From Roseibacillus sp. (GTDB taxonomy: Bacteria > Verrucomicrobiota > Verrucomicrobiia > Verrucomicrobiales > Akkermansiaceae): a stretch of 64,000 bases of DNA. The stretch lies in the NCBI GenBank assembly GCA_965242925.1, contig CBDEUM010000030.1, forward strand, positions 224,001 through 288,000. Reading direction: 5' to 3'. The notes below the pieces were generated by a model. That model was given only the letters and a program-made list of their open reading frames with translations, was not told the DNA's origin and ran no database searches. The translations under genes and the position numbers were made by a program. Positions 6,969 to 42,830 of this stretch are shown here, piece by piece (position 1 is the first letter of the stretch; the number at the start of each line of letters is the position of its first letter).

Positions 6969-8153
6969 GTGTTCGAGCTTCTAGCCACCGATGCCACCAC
7001 CAGGGCCCGCCGCGGTCGACTCACCACTGCGCACGGCACAGTCGAAACCCCGGTCTTCATGCCGGTGGGCACCCAGGGTTCGGTCAAGACCCTGCATCCC
7101 GATGAACTGCGCCTTCTCGATGCCCAAATCATTCTCGGCAATACCTACCACCTCTGGCTGCGTCCCGGGGAGGAAACCATCCGTGAACTCGGTGGACTCC
7201 ACCGCTTCAGTGCCTGGGATCGTCCCCTCCTTACCGACTCGGGAGGCTTTCAGGTCTGGTCCCTCGCCAAAACCCGCAGGATCTCCGAGGAGGGTGTCCA
7301 CTTCCAGAACCACCTCGACGGCTCTCCGGCTCTCCTCACCCCTGAAAAGAGCATGGAGATCCAGGCCTCCCTCGGTGCCGACATTGCCATGGTCTTCGAC
7401 GAGTGTCCCCCCTTCCCCTGCGAGCGGAACTATGCCGAAAAATCCACCTCCCTCACCACCCGCTGGGCCGAACGTTGCCTGAAGTGGCACGAGGAGAATG
7501 CCGCCCATCACTATCCCGTCCCCCCCCCCACGGCTCAGAGAGATCTGACCCCTCAGGCCTCAAAAGTTGATCCCAAACGCCAGCTTTGCTTTGGAATCGT
7601 CCAGGGCTCCGCCTATGCCGACCTGCGGGAGTCATCCGCCCGCGACCTCTGTGCGCTCAACTTTGACGGCTATGCCATCGGCGGCGTCTCCGTGGGAGAA
7701 CCGGAAGAAGAGATGTTTCGTGCAGTCGATCACAGCGAACCCTTCCTCCCGTCCCACAAACCTCGTTACGCAATGGGACTGGGCACTCCTCCCCAGATAC
7801 TGGAAATGATTGCGCGGGGGGTGGACATGTTCGATTGCGTGCACCCCACCCGCTCCGCTCGCCACGGCCTGGCCTTCACTCCCGATGGTCCGATTCACAT
7901 AAAGAATGCCTGCTTCGAACGTGATCAGGCTCCCCTGACCGGGGATTGCCACCCCCATCTGGCCGACTTCTCCCGTGCCTACCTCCGCCATCTCTTCAAG
8001 GCGGGAGAAATGCTGGCTTTGCGATTGCTTTCTTTTCATAATCTTGATTTTTACCTTCGCCTGATGCGCGGCGCGAGAGAGGCCATCAATGCCGGTGCCT
8101 TCCGAGAATTCCAGTCCTCCTTCTGCGAGCGCTACAACCACCAGACCGAATGA
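6969..8153 (+). CDS. tgt: tRNA-guanine transglycosylase
   Basis: TPVFMPVGTQG, LTDSGGFQV, FGIVQG and DMFDCVHPTR motifs; tgt-yajC-secDF context. Confidence 0.96.
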   Translation: MFELLATDATTRARRGRLTTAHGTVETPVFMPVGTQGSVKTLHPDELRLLDAQIILGNTYHLWLRPGEETIRELGGLHRFSAWDRPLLTDSGGFQVWSLAKTRRISEEGVHFQNHLDGSPALLTPEKSMEIQASLGADIAMVFDECPPFPCERNYAEKSTSLTTRWAERCLKWHEENAAHHYPVPPPTAQRDLTPQASKVDPKRQLCFGIVQGSAYADLRESSARDLCALNFDGYAIGGVSVGEPEEEMFRAVDHSEPFLPSHKPRYAMGLGTPPQILEMIARGVDMFDCVHPTRSARHGLAFTPDGPIHIKNACFERDQAPLTGDCHPHLADFSRAYLRHLFKAGEMLALRLLSFHNLDFYLRLMRGAREAINAGAFREFQSSFCERYNHQTE

Positions 8154-8530
8154 AGCATTATTCCATCATCGCCGCCGCTCCACCAACAGGTGAGGCCAGT
8201 CAGAATCCCATGGGGAGCATGTGGATCATGCTCATCCTGATGTTCGTGATCATGTATTTTCTCATCATCCGCCCCCAGTCCAAGCAAAAGAAGGAACAGG
8301 CTCAGCGGGTGGCCTCTATTGAGAAGGGCGACAAGATCGTCACCATCGGCGGCCTGCATGGTGCCGTCCATCACATCTCCAAGACCACCGTGACGGTGAA
8401 ACTCTCCGAGGGGGTCTTCGTCCCCTTCGAGAAGGATGCCATCCGTTCGGTTGCCAAGGTTGGCAAGGGAGGGAAGAAGGAGCAGGAGGAAGAACCCGGG
8501 GAAGAGGAGATCGCTGACGACAAGGAGTAG
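8150..8530 (+). CDS. yajC: Preprotein translocase subunit YajC
   Basis: TM segment then YFLIIRPQSK and GDKIVTIGGLHG. Confidence 0.95.
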   Translation: MKHYSIIAAAPPTGEASQNPMGSMWIMLILMFVIMYFLIIRPQSKQKKEQAQRVASIEKGDKIVTIGGLHGAVHHISKTTVTVKLSEGVFVPFEKDAIRSVAKVGKGGKKEQEEEPGEEEIADDKE

Positions 8531-8554
8531 TATTGTTCGCTCGTTCCCTGATCG

Positions 8555-9322
8555 ATGCGCATTTCCCTCCCACTTGTCGTTGTCCTTCTCCCCTGTGTCT
8601 GCCTGTCCCTCACGGGATGCAAATCGGAGAGCAGGCCCAACTTCGAGGCCGACCTCTCCCTTCCTCCGGACAATCCCGACTTGTCCGAGACCACTCTGGT
8701 GGCCGAGTTGGAGGCCCGTGCCGAATTGCTTGAAATGAGGCTTGAGATCAAACCCGGCGAGGAACTCGATCGCCGCCTCACGGTGCGGTTCCGCGCCGAA
8801 GACAAGGAGGACGCCCTGACCTGGCTCGATGCCCTCTGCCAGAGCGGCAGGGTCAGCATCCGTGCGGTGCACGACCGCAGCGCCTATCTCACCGACATCA
8901 TTCACAAGGACCCCTCCCAATTCCCCCCGGACCACGAAATCCACACCTATCGGATCGAAGCGGGCGACGTCCCGAGAAGTGAAAAACTGGCCGTAGCCCG
9001 TGCCGAAATTCTCGACAACAGCCATGTGAAAAGCGCGCTTGCGACCCGCGGAAAGCAGCACACGGTTCATATCTCCTTGACTACCAGCGGCGGAGACCGA
9101 ATTCGGGCTGCCACCGAAAAAATGCAAAAAGGCCGCTCTCGGCTTGCCATCATCTACGATGAACGGATTATCAGCGCCCCGGTCGTCACCCAAGAATTGT
9201 GGACCCCGGTAACCCTTGAAGGATTCAACTCCTTTGAGGAAGCCCAGGCCCTCGCCGCCGCGCTCAACAAGCCCCTTTCCGCCAAACTCCTGATCGAATC
9301 ACTGATGCCGCTTGCGCGATAG
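8555..9322 (+). CDS. Predicted lipoprotein homologous to the SecD P1 periplasmic domain
   Basis: Signal peptide with lipobox LTGC. RAVH...SGG...RLAIIYDERIISAPVV...EEAQALAAAL aligns by eye with P1 of the adjacent SecDF. Confidence 0.8.
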   Translation: MRISLPLVVVLLPCVCLSLTGCKSESRPNFEADLSLPPDNPDLSETTLVAELEARAELLEMRLEIKPGEELDRRLTVRFRAEDKEDALTWLDALCQSGRVSIRAVHDRSAYLTDIIHKDPSQFPPDHEIHTYRIEAGDVPRSEKLAVARAEILDNSHVKSALATRGKQHTVHISLTTSGGDRIRAATEKMQKGRSRLAIIYDERIISAPVVTQELWTPVTLEGFNSFEEAQALAAALNKPLSAKLLIESLMPLAR

Positions 9323-9368
9323 GCCAAGAAGCCTCAATGGTCTCCAACTCCCACGCATCTTCCACAAA

Positions 9369-12095
9369 ATGCAACCCACGATCGTTTTCCTCTCCGGCCT
9401 GGTCATCCTCGCTCTCCTCTTCTGGTATCTTGCCAGTGACGATATCAGCCGCAAACGCAAGGTGGGGACCACCCTCATTGCAGGGATCGTCCTGCTCTGC
9501 ATCTGGTCGCTGGCCCCTCGCTCCGAGGACTCCGAATTCCGCGCCGGGGATCTGATCGCCCTCGGCGACGGCTACGAGCTCACGGTCGAGGCCATTGCTG
9601 CCACCGACAAAAAGGGGGAGGAGATCGAGATGAAGCAGGAGACTCTCGATGCCAGGTTGCGCACCCTGCAGGAGCGCCTGCAGATCGACGGGAAGGGCGC
9701 GACCTACTCCTCCAACCTCCCCAGGACCATTACCATCCGCATGCCAGGATTCTCCGAGGAGGAGGCGGAAGAGGTGAAGGCCAAGGTCATCGCCAAACAA
9801 CAGGTCGACTCACTCAAGCCCGGGATCGACCTGGCCGGGGGAGCTTCCTTCACCCTCCAGGTCCAACCCAAGGTCGATCAGGACGCTGGAGAAACAATCG
9901 AAGTGACCTCCGACGCCATTCAGCAGGCCGTCAAGACCCTCCAGGGACGCCTCAATCCCGACGGCACCAAGGACATGCTGATCCAACCCCAGGGCGAGGA
10001 CATGATCATCATCGAGATGCCCGGTGTCTCTGAGGAAGAAGCCGCCTGGGTCCGGGAAATTATCCAGAAACAGTCCGTCCTCGAACTGCGTGCAGTCCAC
10101 CCCAACAATGACAGTCTGGCCCCCCAGGTTGCTGCCAAGGAGAAGGCAGTGCCCGGATACAGACTCTATACCCATTCCTACACCAACGACCGCACCGGGG
10201 ATCCGGTCACCGAACAACTTCTCCTTGAGAAGCGCAACAAGATCGAGGGCAAGCACGTCAAGAAGGCCTTTCCAGACCAGGGATCGACGGGTGTGGTCCG
10301 GGTGGAACTGAGCAACAGCGGAGGCAAACTGATGCGGAACCTGACCGCTCCCATGACCAAGGGGAGCGACCGGCTTGCCATCGTCCTCGACGGCGAAATC
10401 AAAAGCGCACCCGTGGTTCAGGCCACTCTCTCCTCGATCTTCGTCATCGAGGGAATGGGCGATGCGGAGGAGTGCCGCAATCTCTCCGCCACCCTGATGA
10501 ACCCCCTGGAGAACCCCCTCAAGATCCTGAAGGAATCGACGGTCACCGCACGCCTCGGTGCTGCCACGGTCAGCCAGGGAATCTACGCCGGCATCGCCGG
10601 ACTCGCACTCACCCTCGTGTTTCTCATCATCTACTACCGCATCGCAGGATTCATCGCCCTCATTGGTCTTACCATAAACGTGCTTATCCTTTTCGGGGCG
10701 ATGGCCATGTTCGAATTCACCTTCACCCTGCCGGGGATCGCCGGCATCATCCTCACCATCGGGGTGGCCGTGGATGCCAACGTCCTCATCTACGAGCGCC
10801 TGCGCGAGGAATTGCAGGAGGGAAAATCGCTGGGATCCGCCATTCAGGCTGCCTATGAGAAGGCCTTCACCGCCATCTTCGACGCCAACATCACCACCCT
10901 CATCACCGCCATCATCCTCTTCTGGCGTGCCTCGGGCACGGTCAAGGGCTTCGCGATCACCCTCACGATCGGAATTCTGGCCTCCATGTTCGCAGCCCTG
11001 GTGGTGACCCGCGTGGTCTTCTGGTGGACCGCACGCGGACCGGACAAGGGCGTTCGCAAGCTCACGTTCCTGAATATGGCCCCCAAGAGGACCATCAACT
11101 TCATGGGCCTGCGCAAGGCGGCCTTCGCAATCTCGCTCGCCGGACTCGCCGGCAGTCTCCTCATGGTCGGCACCAAACGCGAGGAGGCCCTCGGCATCGA
11201 CTTCGCAGGGGGTGCCCTCATCCAGTTCCAGACCCAGGAGGAACGGGTTCTGGAAAAGGACGCCAGCGCCGCTCTCGAGGACCTGGATCTCAAGAAGGTT
11301 CCCATCATCCAGAATGAAACTCTCCCCGCTCCTGACAATTCAGAGATTCTTTCCATCCGCTGCGCGGATGAGGATGCCCAGCAGATCGTGATTACCCTGC
11401 GGGAGAAGATCCCTTCTCTCAGCCTGAAGAAAGACCCCGTGGAAGGGAACCCTGCTTCCGCTACCGGGGAAGACGGAGCTCCTGATACCCCATGGAAATA
11501 TGATTCTTCCCGGGACACCGTGGAAGCCAGCCTGGGCGCGGATTTCCTTGTCAATTCCCTCATCGCCCTCGGGATTGGCCTCGTGGGCATCCTCCTCTAC
11601 ATCACCATTCGCTTCGAATTCTCCTTTGCAGTGGGCGCATTTGCCGCCCTCTTTCATGATGTCCTCATCTGTATCGGCATCGTGGTCCTGGCCGGGCAGG
11701 AACTCTCCCTCATCCACGTCGGCGCCTTTCTTACCATCGCAGGATATTCCATCAACGATACCATCGTCGTCTTTGACCGGATTCGGGAAACGCTCCGTAC
11801 GAAACGGGGAGAGGTAGCCAGTGTGATGAACCTGGCCATCAATGCGACCCTGTCCCGGACCATCCTGACTTCCCTGACCACCTTCATGGCGGTCCTTGTG
11901 CTGTATATCTTTGGAGGAGCCTCCCTCAAGGCATTCTCGTTCGCCATCATGATCGGGGTCATTGTGGGGACTTACTCTTCCATCTTTGTCGCCTCGCCCA
12001 TCGTGCTCATCTGGAGTCGCATGCGCGGAACCAACCTTCGCCGCGAACTCCTCGACGCCAATCTCGAAGCCCAGGTCAATCCGGGGCGCGGGTAA
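9369..12095 (+). CDS. secDF: Fused SecD/SecF protein translocase subunit
   Basis: GIDLAGG, TLPGIAGIILTIGVAVDANVLIYER, GIDFAGG and GYSINDTIVVFDRIRE motifs. Confidence 0.96.
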   Translation: MQPTIVFLSGLVILALLFWYLASDDISRKRKVGTTLIAGIVLLCIWSLAPRSEDSEFRAGDLIALGDGYELTVEAIAATDKKGEEIEMKQETLDARLRTLQERLQIDGKGATYSSNLPRTITIRMPGFSEEEAEEVKAKVIAKQQVDSLKPGIDLAGGASFTLQVQPKVDQDAGETIEVTSDAIQQAVKTLQGRLNPDGTKDMLIQPQGEDMIIIEMPGVSEEEAAWVREIIQKQSVLELRAVHPNNDSLAPQVAAKEKAVPGYRLYTHSYTNDRTGDPVTEQLLLEKRNKIEGKHVKKAFPDQGSTGVVRVELSNSGGKLMRNLTAPMTKGSDRLAIVLDGEIKSAPVVQATLSSIFVIEGMGDAEECRNLSATLMNPLENPLKILKESTVTARLGAATVSQGIYAGIAGLALTLVFLIIYYRIAGFIALIGLTINVLILFGAMAMFEFTFTLPGIAGIILTIGVAVDANVLIYERLREELQEGKSLGSAIQAAYEKAFTAIFDANITTLITAIILFWRASGTVKGFAITLTIGILASMFAALVVTRVVFWWTARGPDKGVRKLTFLNMAPKRTINFMGLRKAAFAISLAGLAGSLLMVGTKREEALGIDFAGGALIQFQTQEERVLEKDASAALEDLDLKKVPIIQNETLPAPDNSEILSIRCADEDAQQIVITLREKIPSLSLKKDPVEGNPASATGEDGAPDTPWKYDSSRDTVEASLGADFLVNSLIALGIGLVGILLYITIRFEFSFAVGAFAALFHDVLICIGIVVLAGQELSLIHVGAFLTIAGYSINDTIVVFDRIRETLRTKRGEVASVMNLAINATLSRTILTSLTTFMAVLVLYIFGGASLKAFSFAIMIGVIVGTYSSIFVASPIVLIWSRMRGTNLRRELLDANLEAQVNPGRG

Positions 12096-13536: not shown

Positions 13537-14937
13537 ATGTTTTCTTCGCTCGCTGACAATCTCGACGTGACCTTCCGCAACCTGCGGGGGGTGGGCCGAA
13601 TTTCCGAAAAGAACATCTCGGACGCCCTTCGTGAAATTCGTCTCGCCCTCCTTGAAGCGGATGTCGAATACAAGGTGGCACAGACCTTCATCGAGAGCGT
13701 CAAGAAGAAGGCCGTGGGCGAGGATGTCCTCAAGTCCATCAAGCCCGGCGAGCAGATCGTCAAAATATTCCACGACGAGCTGACGACCCTCCTCGGCGGC
13801 GACCAGGCGCCTCTCGATCTCAATCCCCCTGCCCGCATCCTGCTCTGCGGACTGAACGGTGCCGGCAAAACCACCACCGCGGGCAAACTCGCCCTGCGAC
13901 TGAAAAAGGAAGGGCGCCGTCCGCTCCTTGTGGCCTGCGACCTCTATCGCCCCGCCGCCATCGACCAGCTCGCCACCATCGCGAAGCAGGTCGATGTCCC
14001 CTGCTATACTCCGGAGGCAGGAGAAAAGAACGTGGTGAAGGTAGCAAAGGCCGCTCTGAAGTGGGCGGAACGTCAGTCAGGATCCTGCATTATCTTTGAT
14101 ACCGCAGGCCGACAGGAAGTTGATCGGACCCTGATCAGGGAACTGCAGGACCTCCACAAATTTCTCAAGCCGAACGAGACTCTCCTCGTGGCGGATGCCG
14201 CCACCGGCCAACAGGCCGTCAAGGTAGCACAAATCTTCGACGAAGCGGTCGTTCTCAGCGGAATCGTCCTCACCAAGCTCGATGGGGACGCCCGTGGTGG
14301 CGCCGCCCTTTCCATGCGTGCGGTCACCGGTCGACCTATCAAATATGTGGGCGAAGGGGAAAATCTCGACCAGTTCAATGAGTTCCACCCCGACCGCATG
14401 GCAGGCCGTGTCCTCGACATGGGAGACACCGTCTCCATGGTCGAGCAGGTCGCTGAACACCTCGACGAGGAGAAGGCGGCCAAGGCCGCCAAGCGACTGG
14501 AGAAGGGACGTTTTGATTTCAACGACTTTCTTGAGCAGATGAAGATGCTTCAGAATCTCGGCCCTCTTGAGGGACTGCTCGGCATGCTCCCCGGCTTCAA
14601 CAAGATCAAGAAACAGCTTCCTTCCGGCGCCCTCGACTCAAAGCGAATCAAGCACATGGAGGCCATCGTGCTTTCCATGACTCCCAGGGAGCGTACCCGC
14701 CCTGAGATCATCAAGGGCACGCGCCGTAAACGCATTGCCAGCGGCTCCGGTCGCACTCTCCTTGAGGTCAATCAGCTCCTCAAGCAATTTGGCATGATGC
14801 GCAAAATGATGAAGTCGAAGGGCAAGATGAAGAACATGATGAAACAACTTGGCGCCCTCGGCGGGGGTGACATGGGCGGCATGGAGAACCTCATGGGCGG
14901 CATGGATGGAAAAGGAGGGCCGAAGCTCCCCTTTTAG
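13537..14937 (+). CDS. ffh: Signal recognition particle protein
   Basis: GLNGAGKTT, DTAGR, TKLDGDARGGAALS and a Met-rich M domain. Confidence 0.97.
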   Translation: MFSSLADNLDVTFRNLRGVGRISEKNISDALREIRLALLEADVEYKVAQTFIESVKKKAVGEDVLKSIKPGEQIVKIFHDELTTLLGGDQAPLDLNPPARILLCGLNGAGKTTTAGKLALRLKKEGRRPLLVACDLYRPAAIDQLATIAKQVDVPCYTPEAGEKNVVKVAKAALKWAERQSGSCIIFDTAGRQEVDRTLIRELQDLHKFLKPNETLLVADAATGQQAVKVAQIFDEAVVLSGIVLTKLDGDARGGAALSMRAVTGRPIKYVGEGENLDQFNEFHPDRMAGRVLDMGDTVSMVEQVAEHLDEEKAAKAAKRLEKGRFDFNDFLEQMKMLQNLGPLEGLLGMLPGFNKIKKQLPSGALDSKRIKHMEAIVLSMTPRERTRPEIIKGTRRKRIASGSGRTLLEVNQLLKQFGMMRKMMKSKGKMKNMMKQLGALGGGDMGGMENLMGGMDGKGGPKLPF

Positions 14938-41637: not shown

Positions 41638-41891
41638 CAGACAAAAAGCACAGCCACCGACTCCGGAGCGGATCGCGGCGACTCGGACCGATCATCGGAA
41701 CATTTGCCAGGCACGCAATGATCCATTGCCCCTCTCCACCCTGGCAGGGTCGCAGGGTTCCTCGAGAGCTCACAATGAAACCGCGGCAGGGCCCTGAAGG
41801 ACAAATCACTGATCTGCCGCCTACCCTGAGCCGCTACCACCCTCACCAACCGGATCGCGGCCCCTCTCACCAGGCCCCTCGTCGCTCCTCC

Positions 41892-42830
41892 TCAAAGTTT
41901 ATCCAGCTCGCGGGCGCATATGATGAGCGTCTCACGCACCCCCGGGAAATACTTACCCTTGCGCAGAATAGCCAGCGAGGTCCCCTTGAATTCAAGAAAA
42001 TCGACCAAGCCTTGAGAACAACTCATCACAATCGATTCCCCCTCCCGCAGACCCAGTTTGGAAGTGCACTCCTGCAGGATTTGGAGAGCCTCCACCTCCT
42101 TGGAGTTGATCTTGGTAACGTTGAGAATACCCGGCAATCCGCGCACACGCTGCATGATTTCCTGATAGCTCAACTCGTGATCAACTCCGAAAATTGCCCG
42201 CAGCTCCAGCTGCTTGGTTTCGCCCGTTATCGATTCCTCAGCCTCCGGTTGCTCCGGATTGGAAGACCCCTCATTCTCCGGCTGCTGTGACGGCTCCGGG
42301 AGGGGAGCCGTCTTGCTCCCTGTCCCGGTCGGGGCGGAAAAATCCCCGGTCCGGGTGTCCTCCGCTGGGGAAGAAGCGCCCGCGTCGGCCTTCTCCGGAT
42401 CCTCCCTGACCTGCGGCAGGTCCATTCCCACAAAGGGATCCGCCACGGGCGACGGTGCTGCCTCCTGCTGCTCCGGAGATTCGGGTTGGGAATTCATCTG
42501 GATGGGAGCCGCCTCCAATTGCTGCACCGGCGCCGGGCCTGGTGGGAACCCTTTCATCGGGAATCCACCTCCTGCCTGCTTCTGCTGCTGGAGAATCTGG
42601 CCTTCGGCAATCTCGAAGGGATTGGCAGTAGTCGGGTGTTGCTCGCAATAGGGTTGGGTGTGCTCCAGCGCCTGTTGGCCGACTGCCTCAAATGGCGAAG
42701 GCGAAGAAGCCTGGTCTTCTCCGTTTCCCCCTGCGATTTGAAAGGGATTCTGCAGATCCGGCAATCCCCCGGCCGGACTGCTCACGGGACCGGAACCAAA
42801 GGGATTGAGAGGAGGATTGGAGTGAGACAT
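41892..42830 (-). CDS. Hypothetical protein: disordered P/Q/E-rich N-terminus with NPF motifs and a compact alpha/beta C-terminal domain
   Basis: 312-aa ORF with its own promoter-like element (TTTACA-17-TAATTT, 42852-42880). Confidence 0.8.
   Translation of the reverse strand: MSHSNPPLNPFGSGPVSSPAGGLPDLQNPFQIAGGNGEDQASSPSPFEAVGQQALEHTQPYCEQHPTTANPFEIAEGQILQQQKQAGGGFPMKGFPPGPAPVQQLEAAPIQMNSQPESPEQQEAAPSPVADPFVGMDLPQVREDPEKADAGASSPAEDTRTGDFSAPTGTGSKTAPLPEPSQQPENEGSSNPEQPEAEESITGETKQLELRAIFGVDHELSYQEIMQRVRGLPGILNVTKINSKEVEALQILQECTSKLGLREGESIVMSCSQGLVDFLEFKGTSLAILRKGKYFPGVRETLIICARELDKL

Follow-up and report, generated by a model that had tools for sequence, protein, structure and literature searches.

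What is a domain of the SecDF export machine doing as a protein of its own, inside the operon of that same machine? The question is raised by a 64,000-nt stretch of Roseibacillus sp. DNA (contig CBDEUM010000030.1), hereafter the window, in whose coordinates all positions are given; within it, the genes tgt, yajC, a short gene for a P1 domain, and secDF form a string that lies on the + strand throughout. A first-pass annotation had read the short gene as a stand-alone, lipobox-bearing copy of the SecD P1 domain that lacks the proton channel, and BLASTP, the Pfam family PF22599, a profile match to the isolated P1 structure 3AQO, Foldseek, VIA-align, and hydropathy all agree with it. That is, by sequence and by structural model, the mature part of the protein (residues ~28-253; here called free P1) is a complete SecD P1 domain, with base and head. 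In one marine verrucomicrobial genus, the gene has a conserved position within the yajC-secDF operon, and free P1 is a new architectural variant of a known domain, within a widespread, uncharacterised set of free P1 proteins. We hold the identity and the origin of the protein with high confidence, close to certainty; what it does is a matter for the more guarded discussion that follows.

The open reading frame (ORF) of 255 aa between yajC and secDF was found exactly as first described, at 8555..9322 (+). In a BLASTP comparison with the neighbouring SecDF, residues 85-249 of free P1 align to SecDF residues 241-409 (numbering of a 927-aa frame) at 33% identity over 169 residues (E 5e-19), and amino acid identity to the P1 of its own genome's SecDF is 31-33%. 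Three of the four short pairs that had been matched by eye lie inside this segment, namely, VSIRAVH/LELRAVH, the RLAIIYDERIISAPVV/RLAIVLDGEIKSAPVV block, and EGFNSFEEAQ/EGMGDAEECR. The fourth pair, LLEMRL/TLQGRL, falls beyond it, in a helix covered by the 3AQO profile match; this correspondence is plausible and is not significant alone. PF22599 (SecDF_P1_head) matches residues 142-238 over profile positions 10-108 of 114, with 53.1 bits (cut-off, 27) and an E value of 3.6e-14, and the KGRSRLAIIYDERIISAPVV block of the head is nearly invariant in an alignment of 26 family members. No match to SecD_1st (PF21760), Sec_GG (PF07549), or SecD_SecF_C (PF02355) was found on free P1 at E <= 1, all three of which match the neighbouring SecDF, and free P1 scores far below the cut-offs for SecD/SecDF translocases (TIGR01129, 43 bits versus 244.4; NF009583, 29 bits versus 721).

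A structural match to SecDF P1, the check that the first reading had called for, was also obtained. The profile of the 26-member family matches the isolated Thermus thermophilus P1 entry 3AQO (E 2e-9; profile 52-237 on chain residues 32-211), and since that isolated entry exists and is matched here, P1 can fold on its own. An AlphaFold2 (AF2) model built on the 26-sequence family alignment has a mean predicted local distance difference test (pLDDT) score of 85 and a predicted template modelling (pTM) score of 0.75, with disorder confined to residues 1-23. The modelled base consists of strand 30-35, helix 45-58, strand 63-67, strand 74-79, helix 84-95, and strand 100-105, to which a final strand (246-252) is added from the C terminus, and BLASTP places this C-terminal strand on the SecDF segment NPLKILKES just before transmembrane helix 2 (TM2). 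All 10 Foldseek matches to the model at E <= 1e-3 are SecDF or SecD chains, among them 5yhf (E 1e-12) and 3aqo_A (E 2e-12). VIA-align superposes model residues 28-253 on 3aqo_C with a Z score of 18.9 and a root mean square deviation of 2.9 A over 203/222 residues. Z is 14.9 for 5YHF and about 13 for the I forms of Deinococcus, and it has dropped to 8.1 at the first unrelated fold. The features to which the argument refers are as follows.

6969..8153, + strand: tgt (queuine tRNA-ribosyltransferase), first gene of the string; Pfam TGT, E 6e-153
8150..8530, + strand: yajC, 126 aa; Pfam YajC, 97 bits, E 5e-28; TIGR00739, 88 bits; both above cut-off
8555..9322, + strand: P1 lipoprotein gene (free P1 ORF), 255 aa, ATG start, intact frame
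8555..8620, + strand: predicted signal peptide (residues 1-21) and lipobox Cys22 (LTGC), from hydropathy and lipobox counts; residues 1-23 have pLDDT below 50
8636..8869, + strand: P1 base, N-terminal part (residues 28-105); strand-helix-strand-strand-helix-strand in the AF2 model; aligned to 3AQO from chain residue 32/41
8870..9274, + strand: P1 head (residues ~106-240); PF22599 on residues 142-238; conservation; head dN/dS 0.10-0.32
9275..9322, + strand: C-terminal strand (residues 241-255, LLIESLMPLAR) and stop codon; modelled strand 246-252 returns to the base; dN/dS 0-0.37
9323..9368, + strand: 46-nt spacer from the P1 gene to secDF, well conserved across species, with no terminator-like site
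9369..12095, + strand: secDF, 908 aa from ATG 9369, identified by Pfam and NCBIfam; parent of the free P1 copy
9519..9806, + strand: SecDF P1-base insert, ~95 aa, lineage-specific, from alignment; internal duplication of the segment after the insert

How is such a domain held at the membrane? The N terminus of free P1 has an M-R n-region, a hydrophobic core at residues 3-21, and then L19-T-G-C22, which fits the usual pattern of a lipoprotein signal; the 19-residue Kyte-Doolittle maximum (2.27) falls on residues 3-21. No second membrane segment was found, as windows past residue 23 are all <=0.97, and free P1 therefore has no further TM helix. The strict lipobox pattern is [LVI][ASTVI][GAS]C with the Cys at about residues 15-35. 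Scored at the aligned Cys, this strict pattern occurs in 17/26 family members and a loose one in 25/26, while the Cys column itself is invariant in 26/26; the LTGC motif and the lack of other helices, as first described, thus both stand. The genome also encodes the lipoprotein maturation enzymes LspA (114.5 bits) and Lgt (204.1 bits), each above its Pfam cut-off. We infer that free P1 is lipidated, and its anchor may well lie in the inner membrane. Only ~7 residues separate Cys22 from the first base strand in the AF2 model, a tether so short that it would hold the domain on one membrane surface.

Is the gene kept, or is it decaying? Among 40 relatives that were searched are 19 further genomes of the genus, and 16 of these have a strong orthologue (E <= 1e-60), always on the same strand as, and within ~1.5 kb upstream of, the SecDF P1 match; yajC lies directly upstream of the P1 gene in 13/13 loci checked, and all 13 frames are intact. 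The yajC-X-secDF synteny that the first-pass annotation had proposed to survey is thus widely kept within the genus. Pairwise ratios of nonsynonymous to synonymous substitution rates (dN/dS; Nei-Gojobori, 12 orthologues) are 0.16-0.40 overall, with 0.10-0.32 for the head alone and 0-0.37 for the final 15 codons, among species that keep the yajC-P1-secDF order and whose dS reaches ~1.8, near saturation. For the same genome pairs, the median is 0.24 for free P1 versus 0.10 for SecDF P1 (43/45 pairs usable, 2 saturated). The P1 gene is under clear purifying selection that is looser than that on the parent P1. The outcomes that would have counted against the first reading (no P1 match, no lipoprotein signal, or a degenerate or unconserved ORF with dN/dS near 1) were not what we found, because the gene is conserved under purifying selection. 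A decaying remnant of a partial secDF duplication would be hard to square with 13/13 intact frames, dN/dS of 0.16-0.40, a confident folded model, and an invariant Cys, and we regard it, together with the regulatory explanation considered next, as barely credible.

That second explanation is that the gene is a secreted monitor ORF (VemP/SecM-like) controlling secDF by its translation. The layout invites the idea: a signal-peptide ORF lies directly upstream of secDF, and both the spacer and the C-terminal 15 codons are highly conserved, with the spacer kept among species with near-saturated synonymous sites. The conserved C terminus, however, forms a strand of the fold and is homologous to the part of SecDF that precedes TM2, a monitor has no need of a folded domain of 230 residues, and the RNA of the junction has a consensus fold of only -3.2 kcal/mol, with compensatory change in 1/12 pairs. 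An RNA switch at the P1-secDF junction was accordingly looked for with RNAalifold and found unsupported (consensus, -3.2 kcal/mol; 1/12 pairs covaries), in an alignment with a mean column identity of 80% over 133 aligned columns. The spacer (9323-9368) also holds a CACCTCC-like stretch. A secDF start at TTG 9312, which would overlap the P1 ORF and suggest translational coupling, was rejected because the upstream frame holds stops and non-triplet indels in relatives, and because ATG 9369 (MQPTIVF...) is conserved in them; we take the latter as the start.

The genes of the string are close together. The tgt stop overlaps the yajC ATG (8150-8153), the gaps are 24 nt from yajC to P1 and 46 nt from P1 to secDF, and no terminator-like site was found between the genes of the string. 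DNA of the locus is present in marine/seawater metagenome runs, and ~30% of its sampled words occur in six RNA-library runs. Two RNA-library contigs bridge the yajC-P1 junction (8299-8680 and 8463-8737), and two bridge the P1-secDF junction (9166-9419 and 9191-9700); they come from four runs of four studies, positions 8945-9165 are uncovered in all four, and such contigs cannot show absence, strand, or level. Because RNA libraries can contain DNA, the bridging contigs are a weak hint of expression that falls short of proving one transcript. We infer cotranscription, and P1 is probably made together with YajC and SecDF.

Where did the gene come from? In a maximum likelihood tree of 38 P1 regions, the family (10 rows) and seven less closely related short proteins are joined in one clade (support, 100/100), which in turn clusters with the genus's own SecDF P1 sequences (87/78); a quick 76-row tree agrees. 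By blastn, the free P1 gene has no nucleotide match to the neighbouring secDF in this genome (G000) or in G009, where the two proteins are 31-32% identical, and this lack of nucleotide-level similarity points to an old duplication followed by divergence, without ongoing gene conversion. Very probably, the 5' part of the lineage's own secDF (TM1 plus P1) was duplicated to give the free P1 gene, and the TM1 membrane helix turned into the cleavable lipobox signal; the gene stops at the point where TM2 would start.

The same step was probably taken more than once. Short P1 genes of their own, within the yajC-secDF string or next to it, are also present in two further families of the order (genomes G025 and G039; loci L013 and L014). 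In G025, the order is yajC-P1-secDF, and the P1 protein has an ordinary signal peptide; in G039, the order is P1-tgt-yajC-secDF, and the N-terminal helix of the P1 protein is similar to the one in SecDF. In the 38-region tree, both copies fall with the SecDF P1 of the genome they come from (100/97 and 100/99, respectively), and an approximately unbiased test rejected a single clade for the family plus L013 and L014 (log likelihood lower by 105; p 5e-45), for a group that was named after the tree was seen and in which one branch is long. Free P1 and SecDF P1 are 47-50% identical in protein sequence within these two genomes, with no high-identity tract, and the corresponding DNA is 71% identical over 238 nt in G025 and 68% over 457 nt in G039. 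The simplest reading is that separate duplications occurred in this genus and in the G025 and G039 lineages; old gene conversion could also have acted in the latter two pairs.

Two further observations concern the diversity of the family around this locus. In genome G009, yajC and secDF are separated by a tandem pair of distinct P1 lipoprotein genes (L017 2103-2891 and 2896-3663), which are mutually 31% identical; the first belongs to a separate subfamily within the same clade, together with the database protein P0056. In the genome studied here, a 171-aa ORF with a signal peptide lies outside the window (G000:C30 ~41784-42299; L024 1345-1860) and has a sub-threshold PF22599 match of 21.5 bits (cut-off, 27); it may encode a third, highly diverged P1-head-like protein of the genome.

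What, then, might free P1 do? As described in the review PMC5974789, the periplasmic region of SecDF consists of the P1 head, the P1 base, and P4, and it interacts with an unfolded protein; the P1 head swings between membrane-facing and intermediate forms, and the TM region conducts protons. Free P1 lacks the 12-helix proton channel and therefore cannot be driven by the proton motive force. We posit that free P1 would sit on the membrane surface with its base toward the membrane and its head away from it, which is the geometry of P1 in SecDF, and that there it would capture or hold secretory chains leaving SecYEG, acting passively next to SecDF-YajC in the manner of a holdase or a Brownian ratchet. 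Such a role would use a property of the SecDF periplasmic region, namely, the binding of unfolded polypeptide. We advance the holdase/ratchet role tentatively, from gene order, the conserved head core, and analogy, and our confidence in it falls somewhat short of even. For the whole account, in which identity, origin, and this role are blended, we would put the chances at about even.

Several observations weigh against a role at the translocon. Of the three same-genus genomes that do not carry the gene, one has no match at all and is 88% complete, whereas the other two (G007 and G017) have an uninterrupted tgt-yajC-secDF string; because these two species do without it, the P1 gene is dispensable in close relatives. 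For matched genome pairs, dN is ~1.7-fold higher in free P1 than in the parent SecDF P1. Free P1 proteins from other members of the family and the order (L015 and L016) lie away from secDF, and because of them, the P1 fold is not tied to the translocon. Finally, there is the question of which membrane the lipid would enter. In E. coli, Asp at position +2 after the Cys decides between inner- and outer-membrane lipoproteins, a rule that is not established for this phylum. K occupies this position in 18 of the 26 family members, R in 7 others, and E in the remaining one, and Asp occurs in none; the genome also encodes a LolA-family protein (Pfam, 51.7 bits, above cut-off). Under the E. coli rule, free P1 could thus end up in the outer membrane and at a distance from SecYEG.

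Taken to its end, that last point becomes an explanation of its own, in which free P1 is a Lol-sorted outer-membrane lipoprotein that would receive or chaperone secreted or outer-membrane proteins on the periplasmic side of that membrane, without direct contact with the inner-membrane translocon. An association between the Sec and BAM translocons, reported in PMC7695460, may be counted in its favor alongside the absence of +2 Asp from 26/26 sequences and the LolA-family gene. The E. coli rule may not hold here, however; the ~7-residue tether fixes the domain on one membrane and could not bridge the periplasm; and the operon context points to inner-membrane machinery. We consider this outer-membrane station distinctly unlikely.

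How common are free P1 proteins? A protein database search over lengths of 140-447 aa returned 44 related clusters at E <= 1e-3, mostly of 255-263 aa, 42 of them tagged PF22599; those with names are one "hypothetical protein" (from an Akkermansiaceae metagenome-assembled genome) and two that carry JGI "SecD" labels. Longer and fused forms were covered by an all-length phmmer search of 1.84 billion representatives, which gave 169 matches at E <= 1e-3. Among the best 150 of these 169, 113 are <=345 aa, 27 are SecD-sized or larger, and 8 exceed 1,000 aa; of the 113 short proteins, 82 combine an initial M with a hydrophobic segment near the N terminus, and a lipobox-like motif is present in 28 of those 82, in a set where truncated SecD genes may account for some of the short entries. 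PF22599 clusters of 230-302 aa are present in the ESM Atlas for Planctomycetota, Peregrinibacteria, Bacteroidota, and Acidobacteriota. Within the phylum, PF22599 occurs in 151/151 genomes; among the matches listed, short open frames lie beside secDF in G055 and G152 and elsewhere in G028 and G053, and five multicopy genomes have extra PF22599 open frames of 240, 421, 447, 506, 564, and 962 aa. A literature search returned no function for any free-standing PF22599 protein and no paper describing a stand-alone P1 protein, the only "P1 head subdomain" paper being one that concerns VemP. The first-pass suggestion that the protein is undescribed therefore survives in part: no description was found in that search, while databases already contain the family, as hypothetical proteins with a Pfam tag, and free P1 proteins are widespread.

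Two kinds of larger protein also came to light. Eight representatives of 1,034-2,858 aa (P0102, P0104, P0105, P0113, P0146, P0150, P0157, and P0179) carry a P1-head-like stretch far from the N terminus, for example, at residues 1008-1109 of 1,694, and because of these eight, the P1 head is also used inside giant multidomain proteins. In P0045 (424 aa), ion channel domains (PF08016 and PF00520) are joined to a stretch that is 76% identical to the last ~110 residues of the family; its only source is one contig of 2,090 nt, and it has the look of an assembly chimera and not of a genuine fusion.

This breadth raises the possibility that the P1 fold has been reused as a general binding module outside Sec export, for envelope stress sensing or another ligand, and that its place beside secDF is only what a tandem duplication left behind. 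PF22599 domains that stand free or have other fusion partners are indeed common and often do not adjoin secDF. Against such reuse, the yajC-P1-secDF order is kept across species with near-saturated synonymous sites, and free P1 genes arose beside secDF again in other families (L013, L014, G055, and G152). On balance, we find reuse outside export very doubtful for this protein.

Does free P1 work beside SecDF or as a part of it? The neighbouring SecDF, which matches the Pfam families SecD_SecF_C, SecDF_P1_head, SecD_1st, and Sec_GG, has a feature that bears on the question. Its insert at 9519-9806 (residues ~51-146 from ATG 9369) lies after the N-terminal helices and ahead of the GG motif; it duplicates the GG-motif/SecD_1st segment that follows it in the same protein (BLASTP, 37% over 86 aa; E 6e-10) and is predicted to form strand-strand-helix-strand-strand-helix with pLDDT 75-86, in a full-length SecDF model that is weak overall (pLDDT 65; pTM 0.47) and was used for the secondary structure of the insert. 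The insert is found in 11 of the 12 carrier loci with a readable SecDF, and it is absent from both same-genus noncarriers and from other families. Strict co-occurrence of gene and insert fails, since G015 (L005) has the gene without the insert.

Free P1 might, on this evidence, be a subunit or regulator of SecDF, whose base sheet docks on the SecDF periplasmic base (the P1 base, P4, or the duplicated module) and so supplies a second head or tunes the conformational cycle. Base modules of the P1 fold do pair, given that the P1 base and P4 of SecDF come together in a sheet or barrel, as the review PMC5974789 describes; the P1 gene lies between two known SecDF-complex genes in 13/13 loci; and the extra base-like module is present in 11/12 carrier loci versus 0/2 same-genus noncarriers. 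The association of insert and gene is not a statistical test, though, because the genomes compared are kin, and not only the carrier G015 but also two other families with their own free P1 lack the insert. A complex prediction of mature free P1 with SecDF P1 (51-396) and P4 (602-724) scored 0.00 in both runs; made without controls, it is no evidence either way. We judge a SecDF subunit or regulator unlikely, if credible. We would speculate further that free P1 modules are a recurrently invented Sec accessory without an energy source: whenever the 5' end of secD(F) was duplicated, the released P1 domain, anchored anew by a lipid or a signal anchor, would act alone as a ratchet or holdase on the trans side, and here it would also be docked on the duplicated SecDF base module to give a two-headed SecDF; this, too, we think improbable while still worth entertaining. 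If it were true, substrate handling by P1 would be separable from the proton motor.

Two side observations complete the description of the neighbourhood. SecDF starts (9369-9515) with two hydrophobic helices ahead of P1 (modelled helices 3-22 and 26-48, with a short R/K-rich linker), a start that is conserved in all verrucomicrobial SecDFs aligned, where the canonical arrangement is a single TM1. Immediately downstream of secDF lie a polysaccharide deacetylase with a signal peptide (PF01522; 12196-13383) and ffh (SRP54, a protein-targeting gene; 13537-14937).

Why should a lone P1 domain matter? SecDF is thought to pull proteins from SecYEG, with proton flow coupled to swings of the P1 head. 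Going by the review PMC5974789, the debate over what P1 does alone, and over where in the cycle the motor is required, still draws on a few crystal forms. Free P1 is a ready-made, soluble, and naturally stable P1 protein, with which substrate binding, choice of partner, and motor-independent activity could be assayed directly. It is also a candidate for a new holo-translocon accessory in a phylum whose envelope biogenesis is poorly studied. And should it prove inert or unrelated to export, it would still be a clear example of domain release by partial tandem duplication.

Which known systems does free P1 resemble, and where does the resemblance end? The closest is P1 of SecD/SecDF itself (T. 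thermophilus 3AQO, 3AQP, and 5YHF; Deinococcus 5XAN/5XAP), with which free P1 shares the whole-domain fold of base plus head, the Pfam head family, the RLAI..D..I.SAPV core block, and, from the short tether, the same expected membrane orientation. Unlike SecDF, free P1 is a separate 255-aa product with no Sec_GG match, no SecD_SecF_C TM domain, and no P4 in the same chain, and hence no proton channel; it is anchored by a predicted lipid, not by TM1 and TM2. Other free PF22599 proteins, which populate clusters named "hypothetical" or "lipoprotein family," are likewise short, with a signal peptide or lipobox and a P1 head, the base being present or not. The proteins of L013 and L014, from the same taxonomic order, are like free P1 here in lying beside secDF, with probably separate origins, and the free P1s of some relatives have an ordinary signal peptide or signal anchor in place of the lipobox. 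PrsA and the PrsA-like Mdp "dome" lipoproteins of the Mycoplasma pneumoniae Sec-SecDF assembly (preprint 10.1101/2025.04.25.650208) offer a functional analogy only: they are lipid anchored and meet chains leaving SecYEG beside SecDF without ATP. Their fold and family are unrelated to those of free P1, on which no peptidyl-prolyl isomerase (PPIase) or PrsA-type Pfam family was found at E <= 1. VemP of Vibrio, upstream of secD2F2, is likewise a signal-peptide ORF directly upstream of a secDF operon, as PMC11470409 describes; VemP works by translation arrest, whereas free P1 is a folded domain that has been conserved, and support for an RNA switch at its junction with secDF was not obtained.

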